From an uncultured Bacteriovorax sp. (GTDB lineage: Bacteria > Bdellovibrionota > UBA1018), in the NCBI GenBank assembly GCA_964508305.1, contig CAZDSX010000004.1:3359-67358 (forward strand): a stretch of DNA of 64,000 bases, written 5' to 3'. Shown piece by piece: positions 23,827-64,000 of the stretch. Position 1 is the stretch's first letter. The number at the start of each line of letters is the position of its first letter. The notes below the pieces were generated by a model. It saw only the letters and a list, made by a program, of their open reading frames with translations. It had not been told where the DNA came from and ran no database searches. Position numbers and translations under genes: made by a program.

Positions 23827-23991
23827 GCTGTCCCCAAGTGTAAATGAGCTTGGGCCAAAATCTGTCGAATCTTTTGACAGGTGACAGCCTCTCGCACGCG
23901 GGAGTGCCGCCGCGCTCTCGAAACAGCATCGAAAGTGCCACGCAAGATACCTGAATCATTGGATTATTTAAGTTCCCCGGATGGAGGCACT

Positions 23992-24007
23992 TGGCACCGG
24001 CCTTGCT
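23992..24007 (+). promoter_or_regulatory. sigma-54 (-24/-12) promoter TGGCAC-N5-TTGCT
   Basis: Exact match to the RpoN consensus TGGCAC-N5-TTGCW (GG 23993-94, GC 24005-06, 10-nt spacer). ~30 nt upstream of the lipoprotein start. Confidence 0.65.
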
Positions 24008-24035
24008 CTTAACCTTCCCTGAGGAAGTGCATTTT

Positions 24036-40112: not shown

Positions 40113-40133
40113 AGCGAAGTTCACTCAAGCCCC

Positions 40134-41228
40134 ATGGCTGAGCTGATCCTCGATGTGATGGGGGGCGATCACGCGCCCCAAGCCATCCTGCACGGCGCCG
40201 CTGACGCCCTGCCACTGCTCAAGCAGGCGGGAGCCTCTCTCACGCTGATCGGTAATCGCGCGCTCTGCGAGCGCGTGCTTTCCACCAAGCACTGCCGCGC
40301 CCTCGTTTCGGCGATCGACGCAGGAAGCGTGAAGTGGATCGAGGCGACCGACAACATCGAGATGGACGACACCATCAAGTCGTTGCGGCAAAAGCCCAAG
40401 GCATCGATCAATATCGGGTGCCAGCTCGCTTCCGAGTCCTGGAAGCGCTGGAAGAAGGGTGAACCTGGCGCCGCTCCTGCCGCTTTCATCAGCGCAGGAC
40501 ATTCGGGCGCAATGATGGCTTCGGCCCTGATCAACATGGGCAGGCTCAAGGGAGTTGAGAGGCCGGGAATTGCCGTGACGCTTCCCACTCTCAGCCTCGA
40601 CGGCTGCGTCGTCATCGACGTGGGGGCCAATGTCGACTGCAAGCCCGAACACCTGCGTGACTTTGCCGTGATGGGCGCGCTTTATGCCCAAGTCGACAGA
40701 AAATCCCCCGGACTTCCGCGGGTTGGAATCCTGAGCAACGGCGAAGAAAAGAGCAAAGGCAACGAGCTCACGCGTGCTGCACGCGAGCTGGTCGAGGCAC
40801 TTCCCTACTTCAGCGAGATTGCCCGGTTCGAGGGCTACGCAGAAGGAAAGGAAATCTTCAAAGGCCAGGTCGATGTCGTGGTGTGTGACGGCTTTGTTGG
40901 CAACGTGGTGCTCAAATCCGTTGAAGGCCTCGGCTCGGCCGTCGTCCGCATCCTCAAGGACAGCGCCAAATCCAATCCGCTGGCCATGGCAGGGTTCCTC
41001 CTGGCTGCTCCCGTTTTCAGGGCCCTCAAAAAGAAGCTCGACTACGCCGAGTATGGAGCGGCTCCCCTTCTTGGAGTCCAGGGCTATGCCTTCATCTGCC
41101 ACGGTCGGAGCAATCCCAAGGCCGTGGTGAGCGCCCTGCTTCGCGCGCACACTGCCCTGCAGAAGCAGGTCGTTGAAGGCCTTGAGAGCGCACTCCTGCG
41201 AAACACCCAGTCCGAGGTCACGAGCTAA
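40134..41228 (+). CDS. plsX: phosphate acyltransferase PlsX
   Basis: Conserved PlsX N-terminus ILDVMGGDHAP and GFVGNVVLKS motif. Confidence 0.9.
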   Translation: MAELILDVMGGDHAPQAILHGAADALPLLKQAGASLTLIGNRALCERVLSTKHCRALVSAIDAGSVKWIEATDNIEMDDTIKSLRQKPKASINIGCQLASESWKRWKKGEPGAAPAAFISAGHSGAMMASALINMGRLKGVERPGIAVTLPTLSLDGCVVIDVGANVDCKPEHLRDFAVMGALYAQVDRKSPGLPRVGILSNGEEKSKGNELTRAARELVEALPYFSEIARFEGYAEGKEIFKGQVDVVVCDGFVGNVVLKSVEGLGSAVVRILKDSAKSNPLAMAGFLLAAPVFRALKKKLDYAEYGAAPLLGVQGYAFICHGRSNPKAVVSALLRAHTALQKQVVEGLESALLRNTQSEVTS

Positions 41229-41229
41229 C

Positions 41230-42246
41230 ATGAACGCCAAGCCACAGTCGCCCTTTGCAGCGAGGATCATCGGCACGGGATCAGCCTTCCCCAAGCGCAA
41301 ACTCACGAACGACGAGCTCGCCCCCAAGATCGACTCAAGCGATGAGTGGATCCGGGAGCGCACCGGAATCGCCGAGCGTCGCATCTCCGAACCAGGCAAT
41401 GCGGCCGAGTACAACTCGTCGCTGGGATATGAGGCCGCCCTCAAGGCACTCGAGATGGCGGGCAAGAAGCCCGAGGACATCGACCAGATCCTTTACGCGA
41501 CCTGTTCGGGAGACACGATCATCCCCTCGACCGCCTGCTGGCTACAAAGCAAACTGGGAGCGACCAAGGCCTGGGCCGTGGACCTGAACGCCGCCTGCTC
41601 GGGGTTTGTCTACGCCCTGGCGACGGCCGACATGTTCATCCGCGCAGGACAAAGCAAGTGCGTGCTGGTTGTTGGCGCCGAGGTCCTTTCTGCCAACGTC
41701 AACTGGGGCGATCGCACGAGCTGCATCCTCTTTGGTGATGGCGCTGGCGCAGCGGTCGTCGAACGCTGTGAACCCAACTCACCCTCCCGCATCCTTTCGA
41801 GCCACCTTCAGAGCGATGGCTCACTCTGGGAGCTCCTCATCATTCCGGGCGGCGGCACTCGCCAGCCTGCGACCCACGAGGTCCTGGATGCCCACCAGAA
41901 CAAGATCCACATGAAGGGCAAGGAGATCTTCAAGATTGCCGTCAAGACGCTTGCCGATTTCGCCACCGAAGCCGTTGAAAGCAACGGCTACAAGCTTTCG
42001 GATGTGGACTGGTTCATTCCGCACCAGGCCAACATGCGCATCATTGAGGCCGTCGCAAACCGCCTCGAGATGCCCATGGAAAAGGTCCTCGTCAATATCG
42101 AGCGCTACGGCAACACGTCATCTGCGACCGTCCCGACGATGCTCGACGAAGCCGTCCGCGATGGCCGGATCAAGAAGGGCCAGCTTCTGGTCATGGACGT
42201 CTTTGGCGCGGGCCTGACCTACGGGTCCGTACTGGTTCGCTGGTAA
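41230..42246 (+). CDS. fabH: 3-oxoacyl-ACP synthase III
   Basis: Active site AACSGFVYAL, with His/Asn motifs HQAN and GNTSSAT. Start at MNAKPQ (ATG 41230) just after the plsX stop. Confidence 0.9.
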   Translation: MNAKPQSPFAARIIGTGSAFPKRKLTNDELAPKIDSSDEWIRERTGIAERRISEPGNAAEYNSSLGYEAALKALEMAGKKPEDIDQILYATCSGDTIIPSTACWLQSKLGATKAWAVDLNAACSGFVYALATADMFIRAGQSKCVLVVGAEVLSANVNWGDRTSCILFGDGAGAAVVERCEPNSPSRILSSHLQSDGSLWELLIIPGGGTRQPATHEVLDAHQNKIHMKGKEIFKIAVKTLADFATEAVESNGYKLSDVDWFIPHQANMRIIEAVANRLEMPMEKVLVNIERYGNTSSATVPTMLDEAVRDGRIKKGQLLVMDVFGAGLTYGSVLVRW

Positions 42247-49965: not shown

Positions 49966-50513
49966 GGCTTGCCGAGTTCCTCGCCGAAATCCTGACCGCG
50001 CATGGACAGGTCCTCCTCAGGCTCGCAGCCCTGCTGGGCGAGGAGCGCCTGCTGGATTTACTGGAGCGAGCCGAGGAGCTCTACCCGCTTGCGGACGAGG
50101 ATGCGGAGACCTTTTCAAGATGGGAACAGTGGCTTCGCTCCATGCTCGTCACGAGCCCCGGGGACACCTCTCCGCAGGCCATGGCCGAGATCCAGTCGGC
50201 CGTGAACGCCCTCAATCTCCCCGAGGTGCTCGAATTCTATGTCTGGGCGTACCCGACCTACCGCGCCTATGTGGAAACCGGGATTGAGCTTTCGATGCGC
50301 ATTCCTCGAATGAGCGCCACGGGCGCACCCAGTGAGAACGGCCTCCAGCTCACGGACAATGCCCTGGAGCGCGCGCGCGAGTGGTTTAAAAGACTGCCTC
50401 TCCCGTCAGAGATCGGACTTGCAGCCGAGCGGGCGGCAGAGATCCCCTGGCTTCGCTTCAGGGCCGAGGTCCTCAAACGAGTAGGAAGGCGCCCCCTCGG
50501 GCCTGTCTACTAG
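49962..50513 (+). CDS. hypothetical protein 4 (helical)
   Basis: ATGA overlap with the previous ORF. Its stop overlaps the convergent polA stop. Confidence 0.45.
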   Translation: MRLAEFLAEILTAHGQVLLRLAALLGEERLLDLLERAEELYPLADEDAETFSRWEQWLRSMLVTSPGDTSPQAMAEIQSAVNALNLPEVLEFYVWAYPTYRAYVETGIELSMRIPRMSATGAPSENGLQLTDNALERAREWFKRLPLPSEIGLAAERAAEIPWLRFRAEVLKRVGRRPLGPVY

Positions 50514-53287
50514 AGCTCCATCCAATTCGAGCCATGGCTCGAGTTCACCCGCAGTGGCACGGCAAGATCATGGAACGGTGCCAGGGCTCCTTCCATGGCC
50601 TCGACCACCATCCTCTCGATCCGCTCGGCCTCGTCCTTTGGACAATCAATGACCACTTCGTCGTGAACCTGGATGATCAGGCGAGCCCCACTCTTGAGAT
50701 CGCGGAGTCGTTCGTCGATCTCGATCATCGCAAGCTTCATGAGATCGGCAGCCGTTCCCTGGATCGGAGTGTTCATCGCCATGCGCTCGGCATTGGCGCG
50801 GATTGCGGGATTCTTGGAATGGATATCCGGAAGCTGGCGTTTGCGTCCCAGCAGGGTCGTGACGAAGCCTTTTTCGCGGGCTCCGACGATGGCGCCATCC
50901 AGATACGCCTTCACCCCCGCGTAACGCTCAAAGTAGCGCTCAATCGTCTCCGCAGCCTCCTTGCGGGAGATCTTGAGCTCCTGCGAGAGTCCAAATGCGG
51001 TTTTTCCGTACATGAGCCCGAAGTTGATCGCCTTTGCAATCGAGCGCTCGCGATCCCCCACCTGGTCAGCCGGAATTCCGAAGATCTCGGCAGCCGTTCG
51101 ACGGTGCACGTCTTCATCGGCCCTGAATGACCGAACCAGCTCGACGTCCCCACTCATATCAGCGAGCAGCCTGAGTTCGATCTGGCTGTAATCCGCCGAA
51201 ATAAGGACATTGCCCGGACTGGGCACAAAAGCCCCCCGGATCCGAATCCCGCGATCCGAGCGGATCGGAATATTCTGCAGATTGGGATCCGAACTCGAGA
51301 GCCTGCCCGTCGCCGTGCCGGCCTGATGGAAAGAGGCGTGGATCTTTCCAGTGACCGGATCCTTGAGCGTCGGCAGCGGATCGACATAAGTGCCCTTGAG
51401 CTTGGAGATCTCCCGATACTCAAGCAGGAGGCGTGGGACCTCATGCATGGGCGCCAAGGCTTCAAGCGTTGCAGCGTCGGTGGAGTAGCCCGTCTTGGTC
51501 TTCGACTGAGTGGGAAGCCCCAGGTGCTCAAAGAGCAGCACGCCCAGCTGCTTGGGCGAATTCAGGTTGATCGGGCCCGGAGCAAATGCGGATATTTTTT
51601 TTTCGAGCGCAACGAGTTCCCTATCAAACTCGATGGCGAGGCCCTTGAGATAGGCCTCGTTGATGCAGACCCCGTTCATCTCCATCCTGGAGAGCACCTG
51701 CACCAGTGGCAGATCCACGCGCGAAAAAACTTCCATCAGGCGTTCGCGCTCGAGCTCGCGGTGAAGCAGGCGCCAGAGCCTGAGAGCCACCCAGGCGTCC
51801 TCTGCTGAATAGCGAGTCGCCACATCCACGGGGACCATGTCGAAAGTGATCTGGTCCTTTCCTTTCCCGCAGACTTCCTCGTAAGTGAGCATCGAGTAAT
51901 CGAGATACTGCGAAGCCAGGGTCTTGAGATCGTGCCTTCCCTCGGGCGCAAGCAGGTAGGCTGCAACCATGGTGTCGGCACCGATTCCATCGGGCTCAAT
52001 TCCCTGCGCACGGCACACACTGAAGTCGTACTTGAGGTTCTGTCCGATCTTCTTGATCCGGGGATCCTCGAGCAGGGGCCTCACGCGCTTCCAAACCTCT
52101 GCGATCGGCAGCTGCTCCACCTGCGTGCCGCGGTGTCCGACTGGCACGTAATAGGCTTCAGCATCATCGACGGCGAGTGCAAAACCCACGATCTCAGCCA
52201 CGCGCGGATTGAGTGAAGTCGTCTCGAGATCAAACCCGAACTCACCTGCCTTGCGGATCTTCCCCACAAGTCCATCCAGAACATCAAGGTTTGTCACGGT
52301 GATGAAATTGCCCTTGATCCGGCTTGCCTCAACCGCTGGCGCACCTGCCTGACCTGCTTGACCCGCCTGGGGCGCCTGGGAGGCAGGCTTCCTGCCGTTC
52401 CACTTTTCCAAGAGCGAAGTGAACCCGAGCTCCTTCAGCAAGGTGACGCACTCCTCGCCCACCTGGAACTCATACTTGAAATCCTGCTCGCTTACGGCGA
52501 GCGGAAGATCCATGTGGACAGTGGCAAGCTCCTGCGAGAGCAGCGCGGCCTGCTCTTCTGCCACCAGGGTCTGTCCCTTCTTTCCCGAGATCCGCCCCTC
52601 CTTGGCAGCCTTCAGGATGCCTTCGAGCGATCCATGTTCCTTGAGCAGATCCACGGCACCCTTGGGTCCGATCCCGCTCACTCCGGGGATATTGTCCGAG
52701 CTGTCCCCTGTCAGGGCCAGGAAGTCCCGGACCTGGGAGGGAGGAACCCCCATCTTCTCCGTGACCTGTGCGGGGTCATAGGTGATGTTCTTGAGTGTGT
52801 CGAGCATCCTGACCCGATCACCCACCAGCTGCATGAGATCCTTGTCACCCGAAACGATGACGACTTCGTGGCGGGGCGAAAGCTCGCACCAGCGGCGCGC
52901 CAGGGTCGCAATCAAGTCGTCAGCTTCCACGCCGCTCTTTCTAAAGGAGTGGATCTGCATGGCGCGGATGAGCTGTTCGATTCGGTCAAATTGCGGAAGG
53001 AGCTCTTCGGGAGGGCTCGAGCGATTGGCCTTGTACTCGGCGTAGCGCTCCTTGCGAAAAGAAGGCTCCTTGGAATCGTAGGCCACCACCATGAACTGGG
53101 GCTTGGCCTCATCCACGAGCCTCTGGATCATCGTTGCCACGCCATAGACGGCATTGACGGGCTCGCCTGCACGCGTCGTCAGTGGACGGATGGCGTAGAA
53201 GGCACGAAAGATAAAAGAGGAAATATCGAGAAGATAAAGCGTCTGTGCAGGATCCTGCTTGGGGAGCGACATCGGCATCTCCCTCAA
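50510..53287 (-). CDS. polA: DNA polymerase I
   Basis: 5'-3' exonuclease N-terminus, 3'-5' exonuclease-like middle, and polymerase motifs A (DYSQIELR), B (RRxAKAINFGLMYG) and C (VHDE). Confidence 0.95.
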   Translation of the reverse strand: MREMPMSLPKQDPAQTLYLLDISSFIFRAFYAIRPLTTRAGEPVNAVYGVATMIQRLVDEAKPQFMVVAYDSKEPSFRKERYAEYKANRSSPPEELLPQFDRIEQLIRAMQIHSFRKSGVEADDLIATLARRWCELSPRHEVVIVSGDKDLMQLVGDRVRMLDTLKNITYDPAQVTEKMGVPPSQVRDFLALTGDSSDNIPGVSGIGPKGAVDLLKEHGSLEGILKAAKEGRISGKKGQTLVAEEQAALLSQELATVHMDLPLAVSEQDFKYEFQVGEECVTLLKELGFTSLLEKWNGRKPASQAPQAGQAGQAGAPAVEASRIKGNFITVTNLDVLDGLVGKIRKAGEFGFDLETTSLNPRVAEIVGFALAVDDAEAYYVPVGHRGTQVEQLPIAEVWKRVRPLLEDPRIKKIGQNLKYDFSVCRAQGIEPDGIGADTMVAAYLLAPEGRHDLKTLASQYLDYSMLTYEEVCGKGKDQITFDMVPVDVATRYSAEDAWVALRLWRLLHRELERERLMEVFSRVDLPLVQVLSRMEMNGVCINEAYLKGLAIEFDRELVALEKKISAFAPGPINLNSPKQLGVLLFEHLGLPTQSKTKTGYSTDAATLEALAPMHEVPRLLLEYREISKLKGTYVDPLPTLKDPVTGKIHASFHQAGTATGRLSSSDPNLQNIPIRSDRGIRIRGAFVPSPGNVLISADYSQIELRLLADMSGDVELVRSFRADEDVHRRTAAEIFGIPADQVGDRERSIAKAINFGLMYGKTAFGLSQELKISRKEAAETIERYFERYAGVKAYLDGAIVGAREKGFVTTLLGRKRQLPDIHSKNPAIRANAERMAMNTPIQGTAADLMKLAMIEIDERLRDLKSGARLIIQVHDEVVIDCPKDEAERIERMVVEAMEGALAPFHDLAVPLRVNSSHGSNWMEL

Positions 53288-53889
53288 GACTTCTCGAGGA
53301 CGCGAGTACCCGCCATGATGTCACCCAGCCTGGCCTCGCCCTGCATTCGTGCCATGAGCGTGATCTCCACCAGCATCAGCGGGACACCCACCAGGATGCA
53401 GATGATCCAGCCCCAGAGCGGGATGATTGCAAAAAAAGTGGCCACGCCCACGGGCAGATTGCGGATCATGGCGTCCTTGAAATTGGCCGGCTGTCCGTCG
53501 CCCGTTCGAATCACCCGAAGCCCCATCATCCGCTTGCCCAGGCTCTGTCCGCTGAATCCCCAGCGCTGAAGCCCATCCCCGCAGACGCTGTACACAAATC
53601 CCGCCAGAGGTCCGAACGGCCCCGGGATCAGCAGGCCAAAAAGTCCAACAACGAGCAGGTCCAGCATCTTGGCGGCAACGCGCTGGAAAACTGCAAACTT
53701 ATGGCGAGCCCCCACGGGAAGCGTTCCGCGAACCGAATCGGTCACGAGGTCCTGCGCCTCCCGAAGGCGCTTGAGGATCAGTTCGATCACTCTGTTGAGT
53801 TCAAGAAGACCCGCTCGGATCAAGCGGAAAATCTTCTCGATTCCCGCGCCCTTGTTTCCGCCCGTATTCTTACTATCCAACGAACTCAT
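53284..53889 (-). CDS. RDD-family membrane protein
   Basis: Multi-TM with GQSLGKRMMGLRV-type RDD motif. ATGA overlap with polA. Confidence 0.6.
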   Translation of the reverse strand: MSSLDSKNTGGNKGAGIEKIFRLIRAGLLELNRVIELILKRLREAQDLVTDSVRGTLPVGARHKFAVFQRVAAKMLDLLVVGLFGLLIPGPFGPLAGFVYSVCGDGLQRWGFSGQSLGKRMMGLRVIRTGDGQPANFKDAMIRNLPVGVATFFAIIPLWGWIICILVGVPLMLVEITLMARMQGEARLGDIMAGTRVLEKS

Positions 53890-54500
53890 TTGCCGTCCTT
53901 TGACAGAAAGAACCGATCCAAAAGGTCGACCAGGCTATGGACGACAAAGATGTGGGTTTCTTGAATGCGGCTGGAGTTCTTGCCGGCACTCGCATTCAGC
54001 GCGATATCCGCAAGAGCAGCAAGCTTTCCTCCCGAGCCTCCGGTCAAGCTGATCACCTTGCAGCCCTTGGACCGCGCCGACTCGACGGCTCTCACCACAC
54101 TCGGACTGTTTCCCGAGGTCGAAATCGCAATCAACACATCTTGCGCTTTAGCCAGGGCTTCCACCTGCCTCGAAAACACGAACTCATAACCATAATCATT
54201 GGCGAGCGCCGTCAGATTGGAACTGTCCGTCGTCAAGGCAATGGCTGGAAGCGCCCTGCGCTCCATGAGCATGCGGCCCACCATCTCGGCCGCCATGTGC
54301 TGGGCGTCGGCCGCCGAGCCTCCATTGCCACAGATCAGGACCTTGCCGCCTCCAGCGAGGCAATGTCCAAGTAGCTCCGAAGCTTTGACGAGCAGGCCCC
54401 CGGATTCCTTCAAAAATTGCTCCCGGATGGCCGTTGACTCAGCCGAAGTTTGGGTGAGATAGTCCAGCGGCGCCTGCATCGAATCAGAACTGGGTGACAT
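53886..54500 (-). CDS. gmhA: SIS-domain phosphoheptose isomerase (GmhA/DiaA family)
   Basis: CGNGGSAADAQHMAAEM closely matches the GmhA GNGGSAADAQHF motif. ATGA overlap with the RDD gene. Confidence 0.8.
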   Translation of the reverse strand: MSPSSDSMQAPLDYLTQTSAESTAIREQFLKESGGLLVKASELLGHCLAGGGKVLICGNGGSAADAQHMAAEMVGRMLMERRALPAIALTTDSSNLTALANDYGYEFVFSRQVEALAKAQDVLIAISTSGNSPSVVRAVESARSKGCKVISLTGGSGGKLAALADIALNASAGKNSSRIQETHIFVVHSLVDLLDRFFLSKDGK

Positions 54501-54529
54501 GGCGCAGAACTTATCCTTTAGGGGCCACT

Positions 54530-54859
54530 ATGGCAAACGCACACGTAAAAACCGCAACCGATCAGAACTTCCCGACCGACATCCTCAAGGCCTCGCAGGT
54601 CACCCTCGTGGACTTCTGGGCGGAGTGGTGCGGTCCCTGCCGCGCACTCGCCCCGACGATCGACTCCATTGCCGAAGAGTTCGCCGGCAAGGTCAATGTC
54701 TTCAAGCACAACGTGGACGACCATCCGGTCACCCCCGGCCAGTACAGCATCCGCGGTATTCCGACCCTGCTCGTATTCAAGGGCGGCCAGGTCGTCGACC
54801 AGATCGTGGGCAACCAGCCCCGCGAAGTGATCGTTCAGGCCATCCAGCGCCACCTCTAA
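54530..54859 (+). CDS. trxA: thioredoxin
   Basis: WAEWCGPCRALAP active site. Start at MANAHVKTATDQNF. Confidence 0.9.
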   Translation: MANAHVKTATDQNFPTDILKASQVTLVDFWAEWCGPCRALAPTIDSIAEEFAGKVNVFKHNVDDHPVTPGQYSIRGIPTLLVFKGGQVVDQIVGNQPREVIVQAIQRHL

Positions 54860-54934: not shown

Positions 54935-55600
54935 ATGGAATCGGGAAACTTCACGCAGGGAATCGTAGGCGCATTTCAGCAGGGCGGCTTCTCCATGTGG
55001 CTCATCGCGGTGGCTTTGGCCGTCTCGGTGGCTTTCATGCTGGAGCGCATGGTCAAATTGGCCCAGGCCAATGTTGATGGTGCGGCCTTCATGTTCGAGA
55101 TCCAAAAGTACATCCTGGCCAATGACCTGGACGGGGCCATCCGGCTCTGTAACGGAGCCGGAAACGCCGCCCTCCCCCGCGTGATCAAGGCCGGCCTCCA
55201 GCGCGCCTCCCGCGACCAGGAACAGATCCAGAACGCCATTGATGCTGCAAGCCTCGAGGTGATCCCAAAGCTCGAGCGCAGGCTTCCCTATCTTTCGCTC
55301 ATTGCCAACATCGCGACCCTCCTGGGTCTCCTGGGCACCATCTCGGGTCTGATCAAGTCCTTCGCAGCCGTGGCCCTTGCCGATCCGGCCCAGCGCCAGG
55401 CCATTCTCGCTGCCGGTATCTCGGAAGCCATGAACGCTACGGCTTTCGGTCTTGTGACCGCCATCCTGACGATGGTCGTGCACAGCGTGCTGAGCAGCAA
55501 GGCCTCCAAGATCATCGAAGAAGTCGATGAATACGGAGTCAAGCTGCTGGACCTGCTTTCGGCCCGCAAGTTCCGTCATTCTTCGGAGAAGGCGGAGTAA
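54935..55600 (+). CDS. MotA/TolQ/ExbB-family proton channel (AglR-like)
   Basis: Three TM helices and a conserved TolQ/ExbB C-terminal region. RBS AAGAGGAG. Confidence 0.85.
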   Translation: MESGNFTQGIVGAFQQGGFSMWLIAVALAVSVAFMLERMVKLAQANVDGAAFMFEIQKYILANDLDGAIRLCNGAGNAALPRVIKAGLQRASRDQEQIQNAIDAASLEVIPKLERRLPYLSLIANIATLLGLLGTISGLIKSFAAVALADPAQRQAILAAGISEAMNATAFGLVTAILTMVVHSVLSSKASKIIEEVDEYGVKLLDLLSARKFRHSSEKAE

Positions 55601-55606
55601 CCGACC

Positions 55607-56152
55607 TTGCTCAAGCGCCCGAGCACACGCAGACGCTCCGCTCCTTCGGAAGTGGCGATCAACCTGGTGCCCATGCTGGACGCCCTGGTGACGCTGATCG
55701 GCTTCCTGCTCTTCTCGATGAGCTTCCTGGCCCTCGTCTCGGTGGAAACACCGATGCCGCAGATCAGCCCGGACGACGTTCAGCAGAAGATCAAGGAAAA
55801 GCCCCTTCAGCTCACGGTGAGCATCAAGGACAAGGAAACCGAGATCTGGAGCCCCTTCGAGCGGATCAAGTCGCAGTCGATCCCGCACAATGCCGAGGGG
55901 ATGCCGGACGCTCCTGCAATCCATGCGGCACTGATCGAAGTGAAGAGGCAGTTCCTGAACGAGAACAAGGTGGTACTGGTACCCGCAGCGTCCACTTCGT
56001 ACGACATCCTCATCTCGGTGATGGACGCACTTCGCGTGCTTGAGCCCACGGATCCGGCGCTCTTCAAGAAGAACGAACAAACCGGGATCGATGAACCCCT
56101 GAAGGCGCTCTTTCCTGAAGTCGTCTTCGGAAACCTCTTGGGAGAAGGCTGA
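55607..56152 (+). CDS. ExbD/TolR-family protein 1 (AglQ/AglS-like)
   Basis: TTG start. Single TM INLVPMLDALVTLIGFLLF with the conserved Asp, plus a periplasmic domain. Confidence 0.8.
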   Translation: MLKRPSTRRRSAPSEVAINLVPMLDALVTLIGFLLFSMSFLALVSVETPMPQISPDDVQQKIKEKPLQLTVSIKDKETEIWSPFERIKSQSIPHNAEGMPDAPAIHAALIEVKRQFLNENKVVLVPAASTSYDILISVMDALRVLEPTDPALFKKNEQTGIDEPLKALFPEVVFGNLLGEG

Positions 56153-56154
56153 TC

Positions 56155-56733
56155 ATGGCTGGTACCCGCTCCATTCGGTTTCGCAGGGCCCGCCGCAAGC
56201 ACAAGGAGATCGAGCTCCAGCTCACGAGCATGCTCGATGTGCTGGTCATCATCCTCGTATTCCTCCTCAAGAGCTATTCGACGTCGACCAACAACTTCAC
56301 GACGCTTCCGGGCCTGAAGCTTCCGCTTTCCGCATCTCAGGACATTCCGCCGGACAGCCTCCACCTGATCATCACGCCCGAAGGCATGACCTTTGAGAGC
56401 GTACGGATCGTGGAGTTTGATCTCGGTGCAGGATCGCTCGGCGCCACGGACGCAGATGCGCAGTATTCGCTCAAGCCCGTGGACCTCGCTGAGGACGGCC
56501 GCCAGATCAAGCCCCTCTATGAAGCCCTGGTCAAGGCCAAGGACCGCGCCGAGCTCCTGCGTGCGAAGTCCAAGGCTCGCGACGCACAGGGAAATCCCCT
56601 TCCGTTTGACGGAATCCTCGCCATCCAGGCCGACAAGCGGGTGCATTACGACACGATCCGCAAGATCATGTATACGGCAGCGACAGCGGGCTACAAGACC
56701 TTCAGGCTGCTCGCGCTCAAGCGCGACGGCTAG
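56155..56733 (+). CDS. ExbD/TolR-family protein 2 (AglQ/AglS-like)
   Basis: Single TM LTSMLDVLVIILVFLL with the conserved Asp, plus a periplasmic domain. Confidence 0.8.
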   Translation: MAGTRSIRFRRARRKHKEIELQLTSMLDVLVIILVFLLKSYSTSTNNFTTLPGLKLPLSASQDIPPDSLHLIITPEGMTFESVRIVEFDLGAGSLGATDADAQYSLKPVDLAEDGRQIKPLYEALVKAKDRAELLRAKSKARDAQGNPLPFDGILAIQADKRVHYDTIRKIMYTAATAGYKTFRLLALKRDG

Positions 56734-56744
56734 GCATCGGAACT

Positions 56745-57815
56745 TTAGATCATCTGCAGGCGACACTCGCCCTGGCTGGCGAGAGCAAACCCGGTCATCT
56801 TATAAAGAAGCCTTGCTCCACAGTTGGCGTCCCATTCGGCAAGGTCAGCGCCTTCGGGTCCCGGAGCGACTTCGTTCAAGTCAAAGCCGACGATTTTTCG
56901 GCCAGACTCGACCAGTGTCCTCAGGATGAAGATGGCCTCTGAAAAGTCGAGGCCCCCCGGCACCGGCGTGCCCGTGTGCGGACAGTAGCGTGGATCGAGG
57001 CCATCAATGTCGAACGACACATAGACGTTCTTGGGAAGCTCCTCGACGATTTGCCAGGCCAGTCCCGAAAACGACTCCCCACGAAGGCGGCTCTGGGCAA
57101 TGTCACGGTCCCAGAACACGCGAACGCGGCCGCCCTCACGGGAACAAAATTCCACTTCCTGCTCGCAGACATCTCGAATGCCGACCTGCACGAGCTTGCG
57201 TACTTGAGGGAGCCGCGTCAGTACGTTGTACATGATCGAAGCATGCGAATCCTCGAAGCCCTCGTAAGCCACACGCGTATCTGAATGGGCATCAAAATGA
57301 AGGATCCCGACATCGGGGTAGGCCTCGACATGGGCCCGGATCGCGCCAAATGGCGTTGAGTGATCTCCCCCCACCAATCCCACAAGCTTGCCTGCCCGGA
57401 TGAGGGATGCCACATCCTGGTAGACCACCTCGTTGAGGCGTGAGCCAAGCTCGTTGACCTGCTTGAGTGCGGACTCCAGCTCGGCATTTCCCGAGATCTC
57501 TCCACCCACTTCGATGATCTTTTGCGCAAGCGACCTTCCACGCTCATTCCATTGGCAGATCTCAGGGCGGGATGGACGCATGAAAAGTCCCGGTTCGTAG
57601 GGCTTCACCACGTCCATGTCATAAAGATCGACCTGGCGGCTGGCTTCCAGGATCGCATCCGGTCCTCCCGAGGTGCCACCTCCGTATGAGGTCGTGACCT
57701 CCCAGGGAACCGGGAGGTAAACGACGCGAGCCTCTTCCTCGCTGTACGGCAGACCAAAGATGCCGGAGTCTCCGGAGGCAGCTGCATTGGGATCAAAGCG
57801 CACGGACTGGGACAT
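56745..57815 (-). CDS. agmatinase/arginase-family ureohydrolase
   Basis: Mn-binding motifs HFDAHSDT, SFDIDGLDP and GGDHS. Confidence 0.85.
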   Translation of the reverse strand: MSQSVRFDPNAAASGDSGIFGLPYSEEEARVVYLPVPWEVTTSYGGGTSGGPDAILEASRQVDLYDMDVVKPYEPGLFMRPSRPEICQWNERGRSLAQKIIEVGGEISGNAELESALKQVNELGSRLNEVVYQDVASLIRAGKLVGLVGGDHSTPFGAIRAHVEAYPDVGILHFDAHSDTRVAYEGFEDSHASIMYNVLTRLPQVRKLVQVGIRDVCEQEVEFCSREGGRVRVFWDRDIAQSRLRGESFSGLAWQIVEELPKNVYVSFDIDGLDPRYCPHTGTPVPGGLDFSEAIFILRTLVESGRKIVGFDLNEVAPGPEGADLAEWDANCGARLLYKMTGFALASQGECRLQMI

Positions 57816-57826
57816 GAGGATATTCC

Positions 57827-58210
57827 TTACTGGCTGAGGTCGATCTCCAACATCGAGCCCGCACCTGGTTCAAGCCGGATTCTCCGGCTCACCCGCTCGC
57901 GAACGCACACTCGGGCATCCTCCTTTTGGCAGACATAGAGACTGCCTTCAAGAAGGAGTTCAGGCTGAGGGAGATCGCGGATCTCGAAACGCTGGCCGGC
58001 AAGGTCACTTACACCCCAATGCCCGACCACCGAATCCCCCGCCTTGAGCTGCATCTCCGAAGGAGCCTGGGGATTGACCTTGAAACCATCCTTGAGCTGA
58101 AAGGCTACCTGGACCGGGCCTCCCGGACTCACGCGCGCGACACCCCTGGCGCGCAGCTGTGGGCACGCGGCCAGGACGACGAACAGCGCTCCATACCAGG
58201 CAATCCGCAT
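57827..58210 (-). CDS. small periplasmic hypothetical protein
   Basis: Signal peptide MRIAWYGALFVVLAACPQ. Lies downstream of the FHA/PglI-like gene in the same orientation. Confidence 0.45.
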   Translation of the reverse strand: MRIAWYGALFVVLAACPQLRARGVARVSPGGPVQVAFQLKDGFKVNPQAPSEMQLKAGDSVVGHWGVSDLAGQRFEIRDLPQPELLLEGSLYVCQKEDARVCVRERVSRRIRLEPGAGSMLEIDLSQ

Positions 58211-58220
58211 CGACCGGGGT

Positions 58221-60284
58221 TTACTGCTTTCCTGCCGGTGAAAACTTGAACGGGTAGCTCACCTGGACCGTGCCACCACCGCGGGGGACTGGAAAGTCGA
58301 TGCGACGGATGACATTGAGGATACAGCGCTCCGTTGGTGCATGGTTGAGCGAGGTCGAAGCCACCCCGGCTTCCGTTACCTTGCCTCCACCACCGATCAC
58401 GAAGGTCGTTCCCACTCGTCCTGCCAGGTTCGGATTCTCAGCATTGATCTCGCGCTCGTAACAGAGCCTGAATTCATCCCTGTGAGCCAGCAGTGCTGCC
58501 TCGATCGCCGAGGCGTCCACGGCTCCCAGAACCACGGCCTCCTCAGGCCCGCCCGAGCGAATCAGCACGCGACTCTTGCCACCGATGATTCCTGAACCAT
58601 CGCCGGCAGCGCCGAGCCCCGTTCCCACGCGACCACCGCCGCGCCCCTTTTCACCCAGGCCTCCGGCACCCAGTGTCTCTGCGTTGCCACCCCCGCCTGC
58701 ACCGGTCCCACTGAGCGCGAGTCCGCCGTTACCCTGCGTGGTGAAGCCGCCAAAACCCTTCAGCCGCTCGCCGTCTTTACCAAGCCTTGCCGCTGAATTG
58801 CCGAGGATATCGAGGATCTTGTCGCTTGCCCCCTTGAGGAGGTCAGCGTTGCCTACGTCCTTCACCTCACTGTTCCCACCACCGCCGATCCCCTTGCCGC
58901 CTTGGGGCGAGGGACGTTGGGCGAGATCCTGGGGGGTCTTGCCAGGAGCCGCATTCTTGGAACCACGCGAGCCTTCCTTGCCGGCAGCACGTGCGCCTTC
59001 ACCTTCCTTGGCAGCGCTCTCTGCACGAGTCTGCTTCGGGAGCTGGGTCGGTCGATTGGCCTGAGCCTGCTGCGCACCCACGTTCATCTCCTTGGGTACC
59101 GGCAGCTTTGCGTTTTCAGGATTGGGCTTCAGATCCACCTTGGTGACGGTTGGCTTGGGCGGGACCGGCTTTGCTGGGGTCTGGGCCTGCGCTGCCTCGG
59201 GAACCGTCTGCTTTTTGGGCTTCGGGACCTGGGCCGAGAACTTCTCCGGCTGGTAGAGGATCGTGGCGATGCGCTCGGGCATCTGCTCGGCCTCAAGCTC
59301 CTGAGGGAGCTTGACGTTCATCATGGACACGAGGAACAAGATGGTCACTGCAAGTGAGCCGCCCAGCATTCTCCAGAAAACCGGATCATGCTCGATCATT
59401 CGACCGGGCTTGAGCTTGGGAGGAGCCGGAGTGAAGCTCAGGTAGAACATCACGTCTCCGACCTGGATCTTGGCAAACTCGTTGCGCTGCAGGTCCAGGG
59501 TCGAGCCATGCGAGGCCTGGACCTGGGCAAGCGTCTCGAGGCGCCCTGCGCGCTGGATCACACCCTTCATCTTGGGGTCCAGGTGGAGCGTGAAGCGCTC
59601 CTGCGCCCTCGAAATCAAGATGTGGCTGGACTGCGAAAGCAGCGACGGTATGCCGAACCGAGCGGTCCTGGACTCGCCAATCTCGACGCTCGTCTCGTCC
59701 ACGAAATGGGCGACATCCAAGATCGTCCCGTGCCAGGACATCACAACTTCCACCGACTGGCGGTGGGTGGTCGAATAATCAAAGATCTCGTCAACGGGTC
59801 CGGCCTGGTCAAGGAGAAGTGACTGGATGTCCTCGCTCTGTTTGACGAAAAGAGCACGCCCCTCGGCCTTCATCTCGAACTTGAGTGGAGGCGGCGCTAC
59901 CGTCTTCTTGATCTCCTCGATCGCGAAGCGAACGCGAACCCCGCCAAACTCGAGCACGTCGCCGGAAGAGAGCGTCCGCACCACCGATGTCTCACCGTTG
60001 ACCCTGAGACCCGTCTCGCTCGCGAGATCAAAGACGGTCGCCTCGACCGGGCCATCGAGCCTGCCCTCTCGGGTCAGTTCGATCACTGCATGGATGGGCG
60101 AGATCCCCTTTCCAGTCAGCCGTACATCCGAGGACTCCATGGAGCCGACCGTGAGCCGGGGCTTTTGGACCCGGATCGAACTTTCGGCTCTCTGCCCCTC
60201 GATGACAAAAACTGCCGCCACCTGGTCCAGCCTGAGGCCGCCGGACTGCTGTTTTTGGTTCGTATCATTCGTGGAATTTGGCAT
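58221..60284 (-). CDS. FHA-domain protein with TM segment, Gly-rich linker and AgmX/PglI-type C-terminal (TonB-C-like) domain
   Basis: N-terminal FHA fold (RLTVGS...VRLTGKGISPIHAVIEL...GLRVNG). TM WRMLGGSLAVTILFLVSMM. Pro/Lys-rich and GGGG-rich linker. C-terminus CYEREINAENPNLAGRVGTTFVIGGGGKV...FPVPRGGGTVQVSYPFKFS. Confidence 0.75.
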   Translation of the reverse strand: MPNSTNDTNQKQQSGGLRLDQVAAVFVIEGQRAESSIRVQKPRLTVGSMESSDVRLTGKGISPIHAVIELTREGRLDGPVEATVFDLASETGLRVNGETSVVRTLSSGDVLEFGGVRVRFAIEEIKKTVAPPPLKFEMKAEGRALFVKQSEDIQSLLLDQAGPVDEIFDYSTTHRQSVEVVMSWHGTILDVAHFVDETSVEIGESRTARFGIPSLLSQSSHILISRAQERFTLHLDPKMKGVIQRAGRLETLAQVQASHGSTLDLQRNEFAKIQVGDVMFYLSFTPAPPKLKPGRMIEHDPVFWRMLGGSLAVTILFLVSMMNVKLPQELEAEQMPERIATILYQPEKFSAQVPKPKKQTVPEAAQAQTPAKPVPPKPTVTKVDLKPNPENAKLPVPKEMNVGAQQAQANRPTQLPKQTRAESAAKEGEGARAAGKEGSRGSKNAAPGKTPQDLAQRPSPQGGKGIGGGGNSEVKDVGNADLLKGASDKILDILGNSAARLGKDGERLKGFGGFTTQGNGGLALSGTGAGGGGNAETLGAGGLGEKGRGGGRVGTGLGAAGDGSGIIGGKSRVLIRSGGPEEAVVLGAVDASAIEAALLAHRDEFRLCYEREINAENPNLAGRVGTTFVIGGGGKVTEAGVASTSLNHAPTERCILNVIRRIDFPVPRGGGTVQVSYPFKFSPAGKQ

Positions 60285-60298
60285 TGGGTTTGGCCTCT

Positions 60299-60502
60299 TC
60301 AGCGGGTCTGGAGGATGTCTCGGACCATCTCTGGGTGGAAATTCTTGCGGGGCTTGACCAGCGAATCAAACTTCTCTTCGGGGCGACGCTGGAAGTAGAG
60401 CTCGGTCTTCTTGGGATAGATCACGCGAGGGGACTTTTCGGCGGCATGCACTGCCGATGGAACGAAAGCCGACAAAACCAAGCAGGCCACTGCAATCTTC
60501 AT
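60299..60502 (-). CDS. small secreted protein (67 aa), hypothetical
   Basis: Signal peptide MKIAVACLVLSAFVPSAVHA. Start overlaps the stop of the upstream TPR gene (ATGA-type coupling). Confidence 0.45.
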   Translation of the reverse strand: MKIAVACLVLSAFVPSAVHAAEKSPRVIYPKKTELYFQRRPEEKFDSLVKPRKNFHPEMVRDILQTR

Positions 60503-63500
60503 GATTCCTCCGTCGAAGGCTGGTTCTTCTTCTGTTTCTTCAAGGCTTCACAGTGCTCCTCGAGGAGCTCGGCAGCCACCTTCTCGAACTGGCCCTTGGG
60601 GCGGCGAAGCTCGCCGAGCTGGTCAAGGCAGGCGGCAGGATCCAGGGGCGCTGCAGCCGCAGCAGTCTGGAATACCTGGGCAAAGCGCCGCGCGTCCCCA
60701 CCGCTCAACTGCGCTCGAACGAACGCACTCTTGGCGAGGGTTGGATTTCCCAGGCCCTGCAGAGCAGTGGCCAGCCCATCCTCGCCCTCACCGGAGTGAT
60801 CCTTGGCAAGCACCTGTTCCCAGAGCTTCTTGGCGGGGGCAAAAACAAGGTAGTAGTTCAGGAGCTGTGCGCGGTTGGCCTTGGCAATCGTGGCGGCATC
60901 ATCCACTGCAATGGCCTGCTTGAGGTAGGCGTTCACCTGCAGCGCACCGTAAGGCTCCTCGAGTCCGTACTGGAGCTCCTTGAGGAGGGCGATGTTGTTG
61001 ATGATTGCTGCATTCTTGGGTTCAAGTGCGAAGGCACGATCCAGGGCAATCGAAGCCAGTGCCAGGTTCTCCTGCTCGGTCGCCAGCCAGACTCCGTAAC
61101 GGGCCCAGAAGGCCGCGTCGCGGGCATTTTTGACCAGGGCTTCGCGGATCTTCTCAACGGCGAACTGCTTTTCGCTGCCACGGGGATCCATCCACCTCAG
61201 CACCGGACGCGTACCCTGCGCTCGAACGGAACGTTCCAAGAACGCGAGTTCGCCCATCACACGCGAAATATCGGGGCTGAGCCACTCACTCTCCTGAGCC
61301 TTGGTGAGCTGTTGCTTGAGGATCTGGCCGGCCTTGGAGCGAAGCACGGCGGAGGCCTGCTTGACGGTCTTGTCCTCGGGCGCAACAGCTTCCATCTCGG
61401 CCGCAAGATCCAATGCCGCCTTGGCCTGCTTGTAGGACGCCTGGACCGAGTATGGCCCTCCGATCTCAAGGACTGGGGCCAGCGCCTTGGTCAGGAGCTC
61501 GAAATTCTGGAGCCGCTTGGGGAGAAGCTTGGCGAGGTTCTCCGGCAGGAGCTTTTCGGACTGCGACTTGTCGGCAAGGATCTGTGCCTCGGCTGCGCGC
61601 GCAAGCTCCCAACGGGCGACGCTGACAAAGAAGGCCGAGGGCCCCTTGGCCGCACTGGATGCCGCCTTCTTGAGGGAGCCAATGGCTTCATCCTTGAGGC
61701 CGATCCGGGCCTGGAGCTGACCGAGCCGAAGCGTGCACTCCACTTCTTCCTCGCTCCCCGCAAAGCCCATGCACTCCTTGTACGATTGTGCCGCAAGCGC
61801 ATCGCGCTTCTTGGATTCATGGTACTTGGCAAGCTGGGCGGCAACGCGGGCCCGGCCCGGGGCCTGCGGAAAGGTGCGGACAAACTGCGCCACGAGCGCC
61901 ACGCGCTGCTCATCGCGATCGACCGCTTCAAAGATTCGGATCGCCGACTCAAGCGCTTCCGAGTCCTTGGAGAGGAGCCCCAGGCGCTCGAGCACGGCCG
62001 CAGAACCTTCGAACTTGCCTTGGACGAAAAGCAGGGTCGCCGAGTTCCGCATGGCCTGTGCAGCAGCCTGGCTCTCGGGAAGCTTCTTTTGCCACACGCC
62101 CAGGACGCGGTCGGCGTCCTCCATGTCGTTCATGCGCAGGTAAGTCGCCACGGCGTTTTCAAAGGCCTTGGACATGGCCTCGCGGGCCTTTGCATCCTTG
62201 CCAATGCCGCCTGCAGCCTTCTGCTCGGCCTCTTCCGCAAACTTTTCGTATGCGCGCGCAGCCTTCTTGAGGTCACCATCCCGCTCATAGAACAGGATCT
62301 TCATGACCTTGAGGCGTTCGCGATAATCAGCCACAAGCGCGCGGATCTTGCCCCCGGTTTGACCGTCATAAGCCATGAGCTCCTCGAACTCGACCACCTT
62401 TTCGAGCTGGTCTTCGAGGTCAGAGGCGGCCTTCTTGGCCTCTGGGCCTGACTTGTCCTTCTTTTCGGCGTCAGCAAGCTTGTCACTATAAAGCTGGATC
62501 CAGAGCCTGGCAGCAGTCACGCCCTGCCCGGTCTTGGGATGCTTCTTCATGATCTTCTTGAGGCGGACGATGGCCTCCTCGCGAGACCCCTCGTAACCGG
62601 CCAGAACCTGTGCCGAACGCATCTCGGCTTCTCGAGCCTCGATCGTGCCTTCGATGGACTCAACGAGGTCGTCAGCCGACTTGACGAAGTCGCGCTCCAG
62701 CGGCGTAGGCTCGGTCCTGAGCTTGATGCTGTTTTTTTGGGCTGAATTATCACGCTTGATCGCGTCAGCGAGGCTTGCGGTCCAAAGAGCGGCAGCCTCC
62801 TTGGCGTAACGCTTGTCCTCGCTCGCGATCACGAGCTTATAAAGTTCAGAGGCCTCCTTGGCCTTGCCCAGCTCGCGCTTGACGTCTGCGAGGTACATCT
62901 GGATTTCGGGCCGCTCCTTGCGGGGATCAGCCAAAGAAAGCAGCTTTTCGATGTACGCCGTATAAAACTTCTCCGCGACCTCAAGTGCCTTGCGATCCGA
63001 AGACTTGCGGTACTTCTCGTGGTTCTCGGTACCGGTGCGACGAATCATGGCGCGCAGGTTTTGCCAGGCGGTCTCGGTCTCGCCCTCGGCATTGGGGTAC
63101 AGCTTGATGTCATCGCCATCTTCTTTGCCGTTTTCCTTGCCGAAAACTCGTCCAAGGGCGTGATCATAAAGGCCCTTGCGCAGGTCAAGGTCGACGAGCT
63201 TCACACGGAAACGGAAGGCAGCCTCGTCCTTGGGCTTGGTGATGAGCAGCGACTCGTAGACCTGGATGGCCTTGTCGGGCTCCACGTTGCGCTCGTATTG
63301 GCGCCCCAGGCCTTCGAGGATCTTGGGATAGAGTGCGAGGTTTCCGGCAGTGCGCTGGAAGTAATCGACGGCATCCTGCACGTTCCCAGACTCGGTCATG
63401 AAGATCGCAAGGTCACGAAGGGCCTCTTCGCGGATGGAGAGGAGCTTCTCCTTGCCCGCAGTGGCCAGCCGGATGGCTTCCTTCATTTCGGCAACGGCGC

Positions 63501-64000
63501 GCTCGTACTGCTTCTGGCGATAGCGGCACCAGGCCAGGCGATGACGGACGCGTGGCACTTGCGACTCAAAACCAGGGGCCTGGGCGGAGCTGGCCAGCGC
63601 GTTCTCGAAATAGGTCTCGGCCGTGCGGTAATCGCGCGCATTGAATGCAACTTCGCCGAGCTCCTTGTAGGCTTCGACGGCGAAAGCGCTCCGCGGAAAA
63701 CGCTGGATGATCTTGGAGTAATACTCCCTGGCCTTTTGCTCCTCGCCGAGCTCCGAATAGTTGTAGCCCAGGAAGTAATACACCTGGTCCATCCGTTCGT
63801 ACTTCACGCCAAAATCCACGATCTCCTGGCAGGCTGCGATGGCGGCCTTGAGATAAGGCACCGAGCGGGAGCGGTCGATGAACTTGTCTTCCTGCTTGAG
63901 CTCGAGCCTCAGTTCATGGGCACGGCCCTCGAGGAGGAACTCGGCACGGTAGGCCTCGATATAGATCTCGGCGAGCCTGAGGTACAAGTCCGCACGACGC
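60499..64000 (-). CDS. giant TPR-repeat protein (AgmK/GltI-like), N-terminus beyond the window end
   Basis: More than 1160 aa of tandem TPR-like helical repeats. The frame remains open upstream of the track's TTG start to position 64000. Confidence 0.75.
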   Translation of the reverse strand, partial: RRADLYLRLAEIYIEAYRAEFLLEGRAHELRLELKQEDKFIDRSRSVPYLKAAIAACQEIVDFGVKYERMDQVYYFLGYNYSELGEEQKAREYYSKIIQRFPRSAFAVEAYKELGEVAFNARDYRTAETYFENALASSAQAPGFESQVPRVRHRLAWCRYRQKQYERAVAEMKEAIRLATAGKEKLLSIREEALRDLAIFMTESGNVQDAVDYFQRTAGNLALYPKILEGLGRQYERNVEPDKAIQVYESLLITKPKDEAAFRFRVKLVDLDLRKGLYDHALGRVFGKENGKEDGDDIKLYPNAEGETETAWQNLRAMIRRTGTENHEKYRKSSDRKALEVAEKFYTAYIEKLLSLADPRKERPEIQMYLADVKRELGKAKEASELYKLVIASEDKRYAKEAAALWTASLADAIKRDNSAQKNSIKLRTEPTPLERDFVKSADDLVESIEGTIEAREAEMRSAQVLAGYEGSREEAIVRLKKIMKKHPKTGQGVTAARLWIQLYSDKLADAEKKDKSGPEAKKAASDLEDQLEKVVEFEELMAYDGQTGGKIRALVADYRERLKVMKILFYERDGDLKKAARAYEKFAEEAEQKAAGGIGKDAKAREAMSKAFENAVATYLRMNDMEDADRVLGVWQKKLPESQAAAQAMRNSATLLFVQGKFEGSAAVLERLGLLSKDSEALESAIRIFEAVDRDEQRVALVAQFVRTFPQAPGRARVAAQLAKYHESKKRDALAAQSYKECMGFAGSEEEVECTLRLGQLQARIGLKDEAIGSLKKAASSAAKGPSAFFVSVARWELARAAEAQILADKSQSEKLLPENLAKLLPKRLQNFELLTKALAPVLEIGGPYSVQASYKQAKAALDLAAEMEAVAPEDKTVKQASAVLRSKAGQILKQQLTKAQESEWLSPDISRVMGELAFLERSVRAQGTRPVLRWMDPRGSEKQFAVEKIREALVKNARDAAFWARYGVWLATEQENLALASIALDRAFALEPKNAAIINNIALLKELQYGLEEPYGALQVNAYLKQAIAVDDAATIAKANRAQLLNYYLVFAPAKKLWEQVLAKDHSGEGEDGLATALQGLGNPTLAKSAFVRAQLSGGDARRFAQVFQTAAAAAPLDPAACLDQLGELRRPKGQFEKVAAELLEEHCEALKKQKKNQPSTEES

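Follow-up and report, generated by a model that had tools for sequence, protein, structure and literature searches.

Positions 54935–64000 of a 64,000-nucleotide (nt) stretch of DNA from an uncultured Bacteriovorax sp. (Bdellovibrionota; contig CAZDSX010000004.1), the whole of which we call the window, very probably encode a trans-envelope machine of the Agl–Glt type. The locus is a recognizable member of this known family in its Bdellovibrio form and not a new kind of system. A plus-strand triplet, preceded by a thioredoxin gene, encodes an ExbB-like protein and two different ExbD/TolR-like proteins. It converges with a minus-strand five-gene operon for a large tetratricopeptide repeat (TPR) protein, a 67-amino-acid (aa) secreted protein, an FHA-domain protein, a small protein and an arginase-type enzyme. 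All of these open reading frames (ORFs) had been listed in an earlier note on this DNA, and all lie where that note placed them. Its reading of the locus as a gliding-like cluster of the Agl–Glt type is backed by family matches, by gene order and by the correspondence with a cluster of Bdellovibrio bacteriovorus. We searched the Pfam and NCBIfam/TIGRFAM profile libraries, taking the equivalog cutoffs of the NCBIfam models as thresholds; the family-match E-values of the window ORFs lie far past chance level. Homology, domain layout and a conserved gene order are directly observed.

The locus corresponds to the Bd0828–0838-type cluster of B. bacteriovorus (Luciano et al. 2011, Table S3). In strain 109J (CP020946; L068), the products of this cluster follow one another in the order 240 aa, 266 aa (barrel), 529 aa (GltC), 1066 aa (GltD), 281 aa (GltE), 95 aa, 707 aa (GltG), 221 aa (AglR), 158 aa and 196 aa. 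BLASTP paired every component of our locus with a partner in this cluster, at low identities of 21–41%. The ExbB-like protein is 41% identical to the AglR-type protein, both being 221 aa long (E = 4e-47), and the TPR protein matches the 1066-aa AgmU/GltD with E-values of 3e-36 to 9e-33. The FHA protein aligns with the 707-aa GltG in its C-terminal part (E = 7e-17) and in its FHA domain (E = 4e-10), the small secreted protein with the 95-aa ORF (E = 3e-8), and the 192-aa TolR-like protein with the 196-aa AglS-type protein (E = 3.5e-8). The match of the 181-aa TolR-like protein to the 158-aa TolR-like protein is weak (E = 0.005). The GltC-like protein pairs with the 529-aa GltC (E = 1.6e-29), and the barrel protein, taken from a relative, with the 266-aa barrel (E = 1e-6).

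The plus-strand triplet is of the AglRQS type, as had been proposed earlier. In contrast to its 41% identity with the B. bacteriovorus AglR-type protein, the ExbB-like subunit matches the solved TolQ and ExbB with only 45 and 41 bits, respectively. A membrane aspartate can be read in both TolR-like proteins, within PMLDALV in the 181-aa subunit and SMLDVLV in the 192-aa subunit (…TSMLDVLV…), and the TolR-like counterparts in B. bacteriovorus carry one as well. An AglR-type protein and two distinct TolR-like subunits in tandem are the arrangement by which an expanded core complex is recognized.

The 687-aa FHA protein has the domain layout of GltG, also known as PglI. In M. xanthus, GltG consists of an N-terminal FHA domain, a central FHA-like domain, a transmembrane (TM) helix, a long linker and a TonB-C-like domain (PMC11761067). 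The GltG model NF033760 matched the protein in three stretches with 163.9 bits, below its cutoff of 650, and the FHA domain was detected with 36 bits. A profile search of the C-terminal domain with the AgmX/PglI model NF033768, the check that the earlier note had named for its assignment, gave a score well above the cutoff of 40 bits (Table 1). The GltJ model matched the protein solely through this shared C-terminal domain (43 bits). An AlphaFold2 (AF2) model built from 40 homologues is disordered at residues 329–588 and features an alpha/beta domain at residues 591–681, with a pLDDT (predicted local distance difference test) value of ~85. When the whole model was submitted to Foldseek, the top 50 matches listed were all FHA domains (E ~1e-8). 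Residues 176–286 sit where M. xanthus GltG has its 'central FHA domain' (PMC11761067), and are here predicted to be all-beta. The FHA domain had been taken as setting this locus apart from Agl–Glt systems. This does not hold, since M. xanthus GltG/PglI is annotated with FHA and TonB-C domains (PMC3169522, Table 1) and the B. bacteriovorus homologue carries an FHA domain too: the domain belongs to the family and is no addition to it.

The most conserved stretch of the GltG-like protein is its Gly-rich linker, which contains ~42 invariant columns in the alignment of 40 homologues; the FHA domain has fewer. A segment of the GltG linker folds into a groove of GltD in the M. xanthus model (PMC11761067). 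By analogy, the Gly-rich linker probably binds GltD and folds as it does so.

The TPR ORF (60499–64000, minus strand) runs off the window, with 1162 residues inside and the first 79 missing. A database protein (P0121) is identical over all 1162 window residues and has a full length of 1241 aa, and a signal peptide is seen in the orthologue from the relative L002. In a family-to-family comparison by hhalign, the window TPR family (A6) matched the AgmU family of B. bacteriovorus (A5) with a probability of 100% and E = 2.9e-97 over 905 columns, residues 46–979 aligning with residues 81–1025 of 1066. Searching with a profile built on distant relatives of ~1070 aa brought up B. bacteriovorus proteins annotated as 'adventurous gliding motility protein U' (P0323, P0339); the names of ten distant TPR representatives were just 'tetratricopeptide repeat protein' or absent. 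In M. xanthus, the envelope TPR protein GltD/AgmU measures ~1190 aa and is encoded in the gene order gltD-E-F-G (PMC3169522, PMC11761067), whereas GltI/AgmK is cytoplasmic and 3822–4132 aa long (PMC3169522 Table 1; PMC11761067). The earlier assignment of the TPR protein as AgmK/GltI-like was rejected on the basis of its 1241-aa size, its signal peptide, its position in place of gltD and its AgmU homology, which identify it as GltD/AgmU-like. The window contains no ORF of GltI size.

Beyond the AgmU-homologous part, residues 1026–1220 matched the 281-aa GltE-type protein of B. bacteriovorus by hhalign (probability 96.6%, E = 5.8e-10, 186 columns), a likeness that TPR–TPR similarity may inflate; BLASTP of the TPR protein against the same GltE-type protein gave E = 0.007. 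A separate gltE gene was found in none of the 38 colinear loci described below. The TPR protein looks like a GltD–GltE fusion, which is the simplest reading of the alignments, given that TPR repeats attract one another in profile comparison.

The fourth conserved product is a small protein related to GltF, which is the same protein as CglF (PMC4488436). The 67-aa window ORF is a shortened allele of a protein that is 92–94 aa long in relatives. The 93-aa orthologues in L002 and L005 scored 40.5 and 37.9 bits with the CglF model NF033764, whose cutoff is 90, and the window allele gave no match at E <= 0.01 in the family search because the conserved motif is deleted. Compared to the L002 gene (L002:9709-9990), the window gene has lost 51 nt in frame, with the junction near 60397/60398. 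With it goes the nearly invariant motif LDFEGxxIEGExRNPGE, and GAGCT microhomology flanks the deletion. In the sister contig L004, a single nucleotide of a G-run is missing at the same spot of gltF. A natural loss-of-function allele, variation within the population or an artefact of assembly could each explain the window deletion. A beta-strand of GltF pairs with the C-terminal domain of GltG in the M. xanthus model (PMC11761067); if the deleted motif is this GltG-pairing strand, the gltF allele of the window may be defective.

The region past position 64000 was deduced from L002, in which the GltG-like protein is 90% identical, and from L005 and L006 (61%). Exact look-ups found no record for P0121, the arginase, the GltG-like protein or the 67-aa protein, and placed the ExbB-like protein and the 127-aa lipoprotein only on contigs of ~1 kb. 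In the relatives, the operon runs AddAB-like, barrel, GltC-like, TPR, GltF-like, FHA protein, small protein and arginase, followed by convergent ExbD-ExbD-ExbB genes and then by thioredoxin, SIS, RDD and PolA. The barrel protein of 250–269 aa, encoded by a single gene, matched TIGR04565 (OMP_myx_plus) with 64.9 bits against a cutoff of 60. The GltC-like protein of 507 aa scored 112 bits with NF033756 (cutoff 450), and the TPR protein measures 1230–1241 aa across these relatives.

Homologues of the 687-aa protein come almost all from metagenome-assembled genomes of uncultured Oligoflexia, Bdellovibrionales and Bacteriovoracaceae. Scanning the genome collection with the GltG alignment yielded 61 loci, all from Bdellovibrionota; the link to Myxococcus comes from the NCBIfam models and the literature, as the profile scan returned Bdellovibrionota only. 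Mapping by tblastn found the order barrel-GltC-TPR-GltF-GltG in every locus with enough upstream sequence (38/38). ExbB-ExbD-ExbD genes lie within ~9 kb downstream in 22 of the 34 evaluable loci, convergent in 19 and co-directional in three. The conserved unit is therefore the Glt module of five genes, which often, but not always, has the motor as a neighbor. In many metagenome-assembled genomes of Bdellovibrionota, the surroundings are of a housekeeping kind (window 50510–54859; L005–L060), with AddAB-like genes upstream and genes for thioredoxin, SIS and RDD proteins and DNA polymerase I downstream. Sharing of these surroundings suggests long vertical inheritance over recent transfer.

Table 1. 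Features of the locus at positions 54935–64000 of the window.
Feature	Position	Strand	Evidence
AglR-like proton-channel subunit, 221 aa	54935-55600	+	PF01618 MotA_ExbB 96.8 bits
TolR/ExbD-like subunit 1 (AglQ-like), 181 aa	55607-56152	+	PF02472 43.8 bits
TolR/ExbD-like subunit 2 (AglS-like), 192 aa	56155-56733	+	PF02472 45.8 bits
Arginase-family ureohydrolase, probably agmatinase, 356 aa	56745-57815	−	PF00491 178 bits
Small envelope lipoprotein, 127 aa, lipobox LAAC	57827-58210	−	no family match
GltG/PglI-like TonB/TolA-type force transducer, 687 aa	58221-60284	−	NF033760, NF033768, FHA, AF2
AgmX/PglI-type (TonB-C-like) C-terminal domain, residues 590-682	58239-58517	−	NF033768 80.3 bits
Periplasmic Pro/Lys-rich then Gly-rich linker, residues 405-588	58521-59072	−	pLDDT <50
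Single TM helix, residues 301-323	59316-59384	−	AF2 helix and hydrophobic stretch
Second cytoplasmic beta-domain just before the TM helix, residues 176-286	59427-59759	−	AF2 all-beta, pLDDT ~90
N-terminal cytoplasmic FHA domain, residues 22-124	59913-60221	−	AF2 pLDDT ~90, Foldseek
GltF/CglF-like small secreted protein, 67 aa, signal peptide	60299-60502	−	orthologues match NF033764
C-terminal part of the TPR protein	60499-61287	−	residues ~1026-1220 (about 60565-61149) resemble a GltE/AglT-like TPR module
GltD/AgmU-homologous part of the TPR protein, residues ~80-979	61288-64000	−	hhalign vs B. bacteriovorus AgmU family

The earlier note had counted an agmatinase and a small protein among the parts of the operon; both turn out to be lineage-specific and not conserved components. 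The 356-aa enzyme scored 166 bits with the agmatinase model TIGR01230, just short of the cutoff of 174. Its metal-binding motifs GGDHS, DAHSD and DIDGLDP are intact, and it carries an N-terminal extension of ~120 aa. Just 11 nt separate its gene from the preceding lipoprotein gene, and another 11 nt lie between its end and the stop codon of the convergent ExbD gene. These gaps of 10–11 nt suggest that the arginase and the lipoprotein are co-transcribed with the glt genes here. The arginase gene is tied to the glt operon in just nine loci, in all of which GltG is at least 59% identical to that of L002, and tblastn found the lipoprotein in those nine loci and in L008 and L045. Searches of Pfam and NCBIfam gave no match for the 127-aa lipoprotein, whose alignment shows two invariant cysteines (C94 and C102) and a conserved GF(K/V)xNxxAP motif. 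A shallow AF2 model predicts a beta-sandwich (pLDDT 74). Its likeness to the N-terminal domain of DsbD was weak (E 0.02–0.1, TM-score ~0.4), and we did not take it as an assignment. The arginase and the lipoprotein are probably clade-specific passengers.

Other genes occupy the place directly after gltG elsewhere. In sister clades, a gene encoding two GYF_2 domains and a PilZ domain follows gltG (L032:11943-12830, L035, L039, L040:11992-13032, L041, L064:460-1323). The window holds a homologue of this GYF–PilZ protein at 22957–23826 on the minus strand, ~34 kb from the glt cluster (38% identity, E = 1e-67; GYF_2 79 bits, PilZ 46 bits). Because M. xanthus GltJ carries a GYF domain, the GYF–PilZ protein is perhaps a cytoplasmic regulatory partner. 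It is a candidate connection to cyclic-di-GMP, reminiscent of GltJ with its GYF domain. A gene for a protein with a cyclic-nucleotide-binding domain stands directly after gltG in two loci (L021:2929-3381, L049:6993-7445), and one for an MgtC-family membrane protein does so in five (L053, L058, L061, L066, L067). The slot behind gltG looks like a favored site for genes with accessory or regulatory roles. Elsewhere in the window, four long ORFs (448–495 aa) had no Pfam match at E <= 1e-5: 18435–19892 (−), 23991–25337 (+), 30184–31671 (+) and 40125–41480 (−). Some of these may be spurious in a sequence of 60% G+C.

To describe how the components might work together, we infer subunit contacts, proton use and motility output from genetic, two-hybrid and AlphaFold work on M. 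xanthus. The AglR-type protein and the two non-identical TolR-like proteins, with their membrane aspartates, would form a proton channel and motor in the inner membrane. The TM helix of the GltG-like protein is expected to dock on this motor, as TolA and TonB do on theirs; in M. xanthus, AglR and GltG interact in two-hybrid assays (PMC3169522). In the periplasm, the Gly-rich segment and the AgmX/PglI domain of the GltG-like protein would grip the TPR scaffold formed by GltD(-GltE), and the small GltF-like protein could bridge GltG/GltD to GltC. GltC would in turn hold a GltA/B-type outer-membrane beta-barrel, both of them being encoded just past the window end. On the cytoplasmic side, the two FHA-type domains would act as protein-docking modules rather than as phosphothreonine readers.

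Three other explanations were weighed against this one. An ordinary ExbB-ExbD-TonB uptake system or a Tol-Pal-type system, with the FHA protein as a long TonB/TolA and the TPR protein as a CpoB/YbgF-like accessory, is very improbable. The motor proteins do belong to the TolQ/ExbB and TolR/ExbD superfamilies, several database sources call the homologues 'TonB family protein', and there are weak matches of TIGR01352 (TonB_Cterm) to the C-terminal domain of the FHA protein (17.8 bits, E = 0.003; cutoff 27.1) and of the YbgF model to the TPR protein (36–48 bits; cutoff 90). However, the motor scores also fall far below the equivalog cutoffs, both for the ExbB-like protein (TolQ 74 vs 221 bits; ExbB 49.7 vs 206) and for the ExbD-type models (ExbD 18.9 vs 123; TolR 24 vs 127). 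Two different TolR-like genes are a feature of AglQS, and the partner proteins, encoded in an unchanging order, resemble GltC, GltD and GltF. In the relatives, which reach past the window end, no tonB, tolA, tolB, pal or TonB-dependent receptor gene lies within 10 kb on either side, in agreement with the earlier claim that no tonB or tolA is adjacent. TonB and Tol-Pal identities were rejected on these sub-threshold scores and missing partners. A gliding-type motor under Ser/Thr-kinase control, exerted through a phosphothreonine-binding FHA domain, was the version that the earlier note considered implied; we regard it as improbable. The FHA fold is clearly present, and Bdellovibrio has FHA–phosphopeptide signaling elsewhere, the DgcB FHA structure 6hc1 being among the fold matches. 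In contrast, alignment with OdhI reveals that the GR motif is replaced by G47-S48, that S-R-R-H reads S62-P63-I-H65 and that the loop S-x-N-G-T reads S-E-T-G-L, which puts Thr91 in the place of the asparagine. Ser48 and Pro63 are nearly invariant among the 40 homologues, and the B. bacteriovorus GltG has G-H at the GR position. With the canonical arginine and asparagine replaced, Ser/Thr-kinase control is not supported, and from its sequence the FHA domain is probably not a phosphothreonine reader. Its best sequence match in the PDB is the FHA domain of KIF13B (3fm8), which reportedly binds its partner independently of phosphorylation. The FHA domain of M. xanthus GltG was likewise modeled docking on GltI without phosphorylation (PMC11761067). 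Scanning the six-frame translation of the window with regular expressions, a crude test, detected no Ser/Thr kinase or PP2C motif.

The remaining alternative accepts the same Agl–Glt/Nfs-type machinery and assigns it an output other than motility, in which proton-motive force would shift or arrange something else on the cell surface, such as polysaccharide or coat assembly, outer-membrane homeostasis, or a step in prey attachment or invasion. We consider this possible, if rather unlikely. The 'core complex' occurs in many non-gliding bacteria, where its role is unassigned (PMC3169522), the locus holds no adhesin gene, and the conserved housekeeping neighborhood of most loci (addAB-like, trx, polA) would suit a core envelope function. 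Against it, the 'Group A' additions present in the locus, GltF and a barrel of the GltA/B type, are tied to motile Myxococcales and Bdellovibrionales (PMC3169522). The likeliest output would be surface (gliding) motility, given that B. bacteriovorus, with four clusters of this kind, does glide (PMC3169522, PMC13104615); for a machine of the Agl–Glt type, we regard gliding as moderately probable by this analogy. Several observations weigh against a gliding machine here, some of which favor the non-motility alternative as well. Five proteins that are essential in M. xanthus, namely the CglB adhesin, GltH, GltI, GltJ (ZnR-GYF-TM-TonB-C) and GltK, are encoded neither in the locus nor in the 10-kb flanks of its relatives. 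The equivalog cutoffs of the Myxococcus models were missed widely (GltG 164/650, GltC 112/450, CglF 40/90), as expected of distant homologues. There is one outer-membrane barrel gene compared to two in M. xanthus, and GltC and the barrel, which lie outside the window, are deduced from relatives. This copy may also be impaired in its gltF-like allele, from which the most conserved motif is missing. The C-terminal domain of the GltG-like protein had no sequence match in the PDB, and the top 50 Foldseek matches to the whole model were taken up by FHA domains, so its TonB-C-like fold is putative. The M. xanthus Agl-Nfs system puts homologous parts to spore-coat assembly (PMC3858216), and a 2026 review describes the gliding machine of Bdellovibrio and other Bdellovibrionota as experimentally unassigned (PMC13104615).

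A bolder proposal goes beyond the assignment of the locus, and we offer it tentatively, as unlikely in its full extent. The locus might be a compact, vertically inherited eight-gene form of Agl–Glt that serves as a self-sufficient, minimal engine for gliding or surface transport in a large uncultured lineage of Bdellovibrionota. It would consist of one barrel, GltC, a GltD–GltE fusion, GltF, a GltG whose FHA domains no longer bind phosphothreonine, and AglRQS, and it would be regulated by the GYF-GYF-PilZ protein as a cyclic-di-GMP receptor in the cytoplasmic role of the GltJ GYF domain.

Within a single genome, a homologue of a catalogued system such as this locus is to be expected. Taken together with the 38 colinear loci, it reveals that uncultured Bdellovibrionota keep a fixed five-gene Glt module, usually beside an AglRQS-type motor. 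This module is simpler than the Myxococcus machinery, with one barrel, an apparently fused GltD–GltE, no GltH, GltI, GltJ or GltK, and an FHA domain that is unlikely to read phosphothreonine. It offers a smaller and more tractable parts list for understanding how a TolQR-type motor passes force across the periplasm.

With Tol-Pal and ExbBD-TonB, the locus shares the motor superfamily, a transducer that crosses the membrane once and spans the periplasm to end in an alpha/beta domain, and a TPR accessory, the latter with a weak YbgF/CpoB likeness. It differs from them in having no TolB, Pal or receptor nearby, in its two TolR paralogues and in a transducer with cytoplasmic FHA domains. The Agl-Nfs spore-coat system of M. 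xanthus, a paralogue with a Glt-like envelope complex and a motor of this type, has a non-motility output. With M. xanthus Agl–Glt, the locus shares a motor with two different TolR-like subunits, the GltG layout, the gltD-(E)-F-G order and, going by its relatives, GltC and a barrel of the GltA/B family. NCBIfam models built on Myxococcus proteins detect GltG here and GltC and CglF/GltF in the relatives. In M. xanthus, the Agl–Glt genes are distributed over three clusters, whereas here all lie in one place.

The clusters of B. bacteriovorus differ in several respects. They contain two barrel genes compared to one here, and the Bd0828–0838 cluster has gltE as a separate lipoprotein gene, which here is apparently fused to the GltD C-terminus. 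The motor genes are co-directional in B. bacteriovorus and convergent here, where the arginase and lipoprotein genes are inserted between gltG and the motor. The surroundings are lptC and rpoN in B. bacteriovorus, compared to addAB and polA here. The Bd1474–1481 cluster has no separate GltE, and its Bd1478 (1237 aa) is likewise as long as the GltD of our locus (1241 aa). The Bd0828–0838 cluster shares both parts and order with the locus, when GltC, the barrel and the full-length GltF-like protein are taken from its relatives: GltC (529 vs 507 aa), the GltF-like protein (95 vs 93 aa), GltG (707 vs 687 aa) and AglR (221 aa in both), together with a GltB-type barrel, GltD and two TolR-like proteins.

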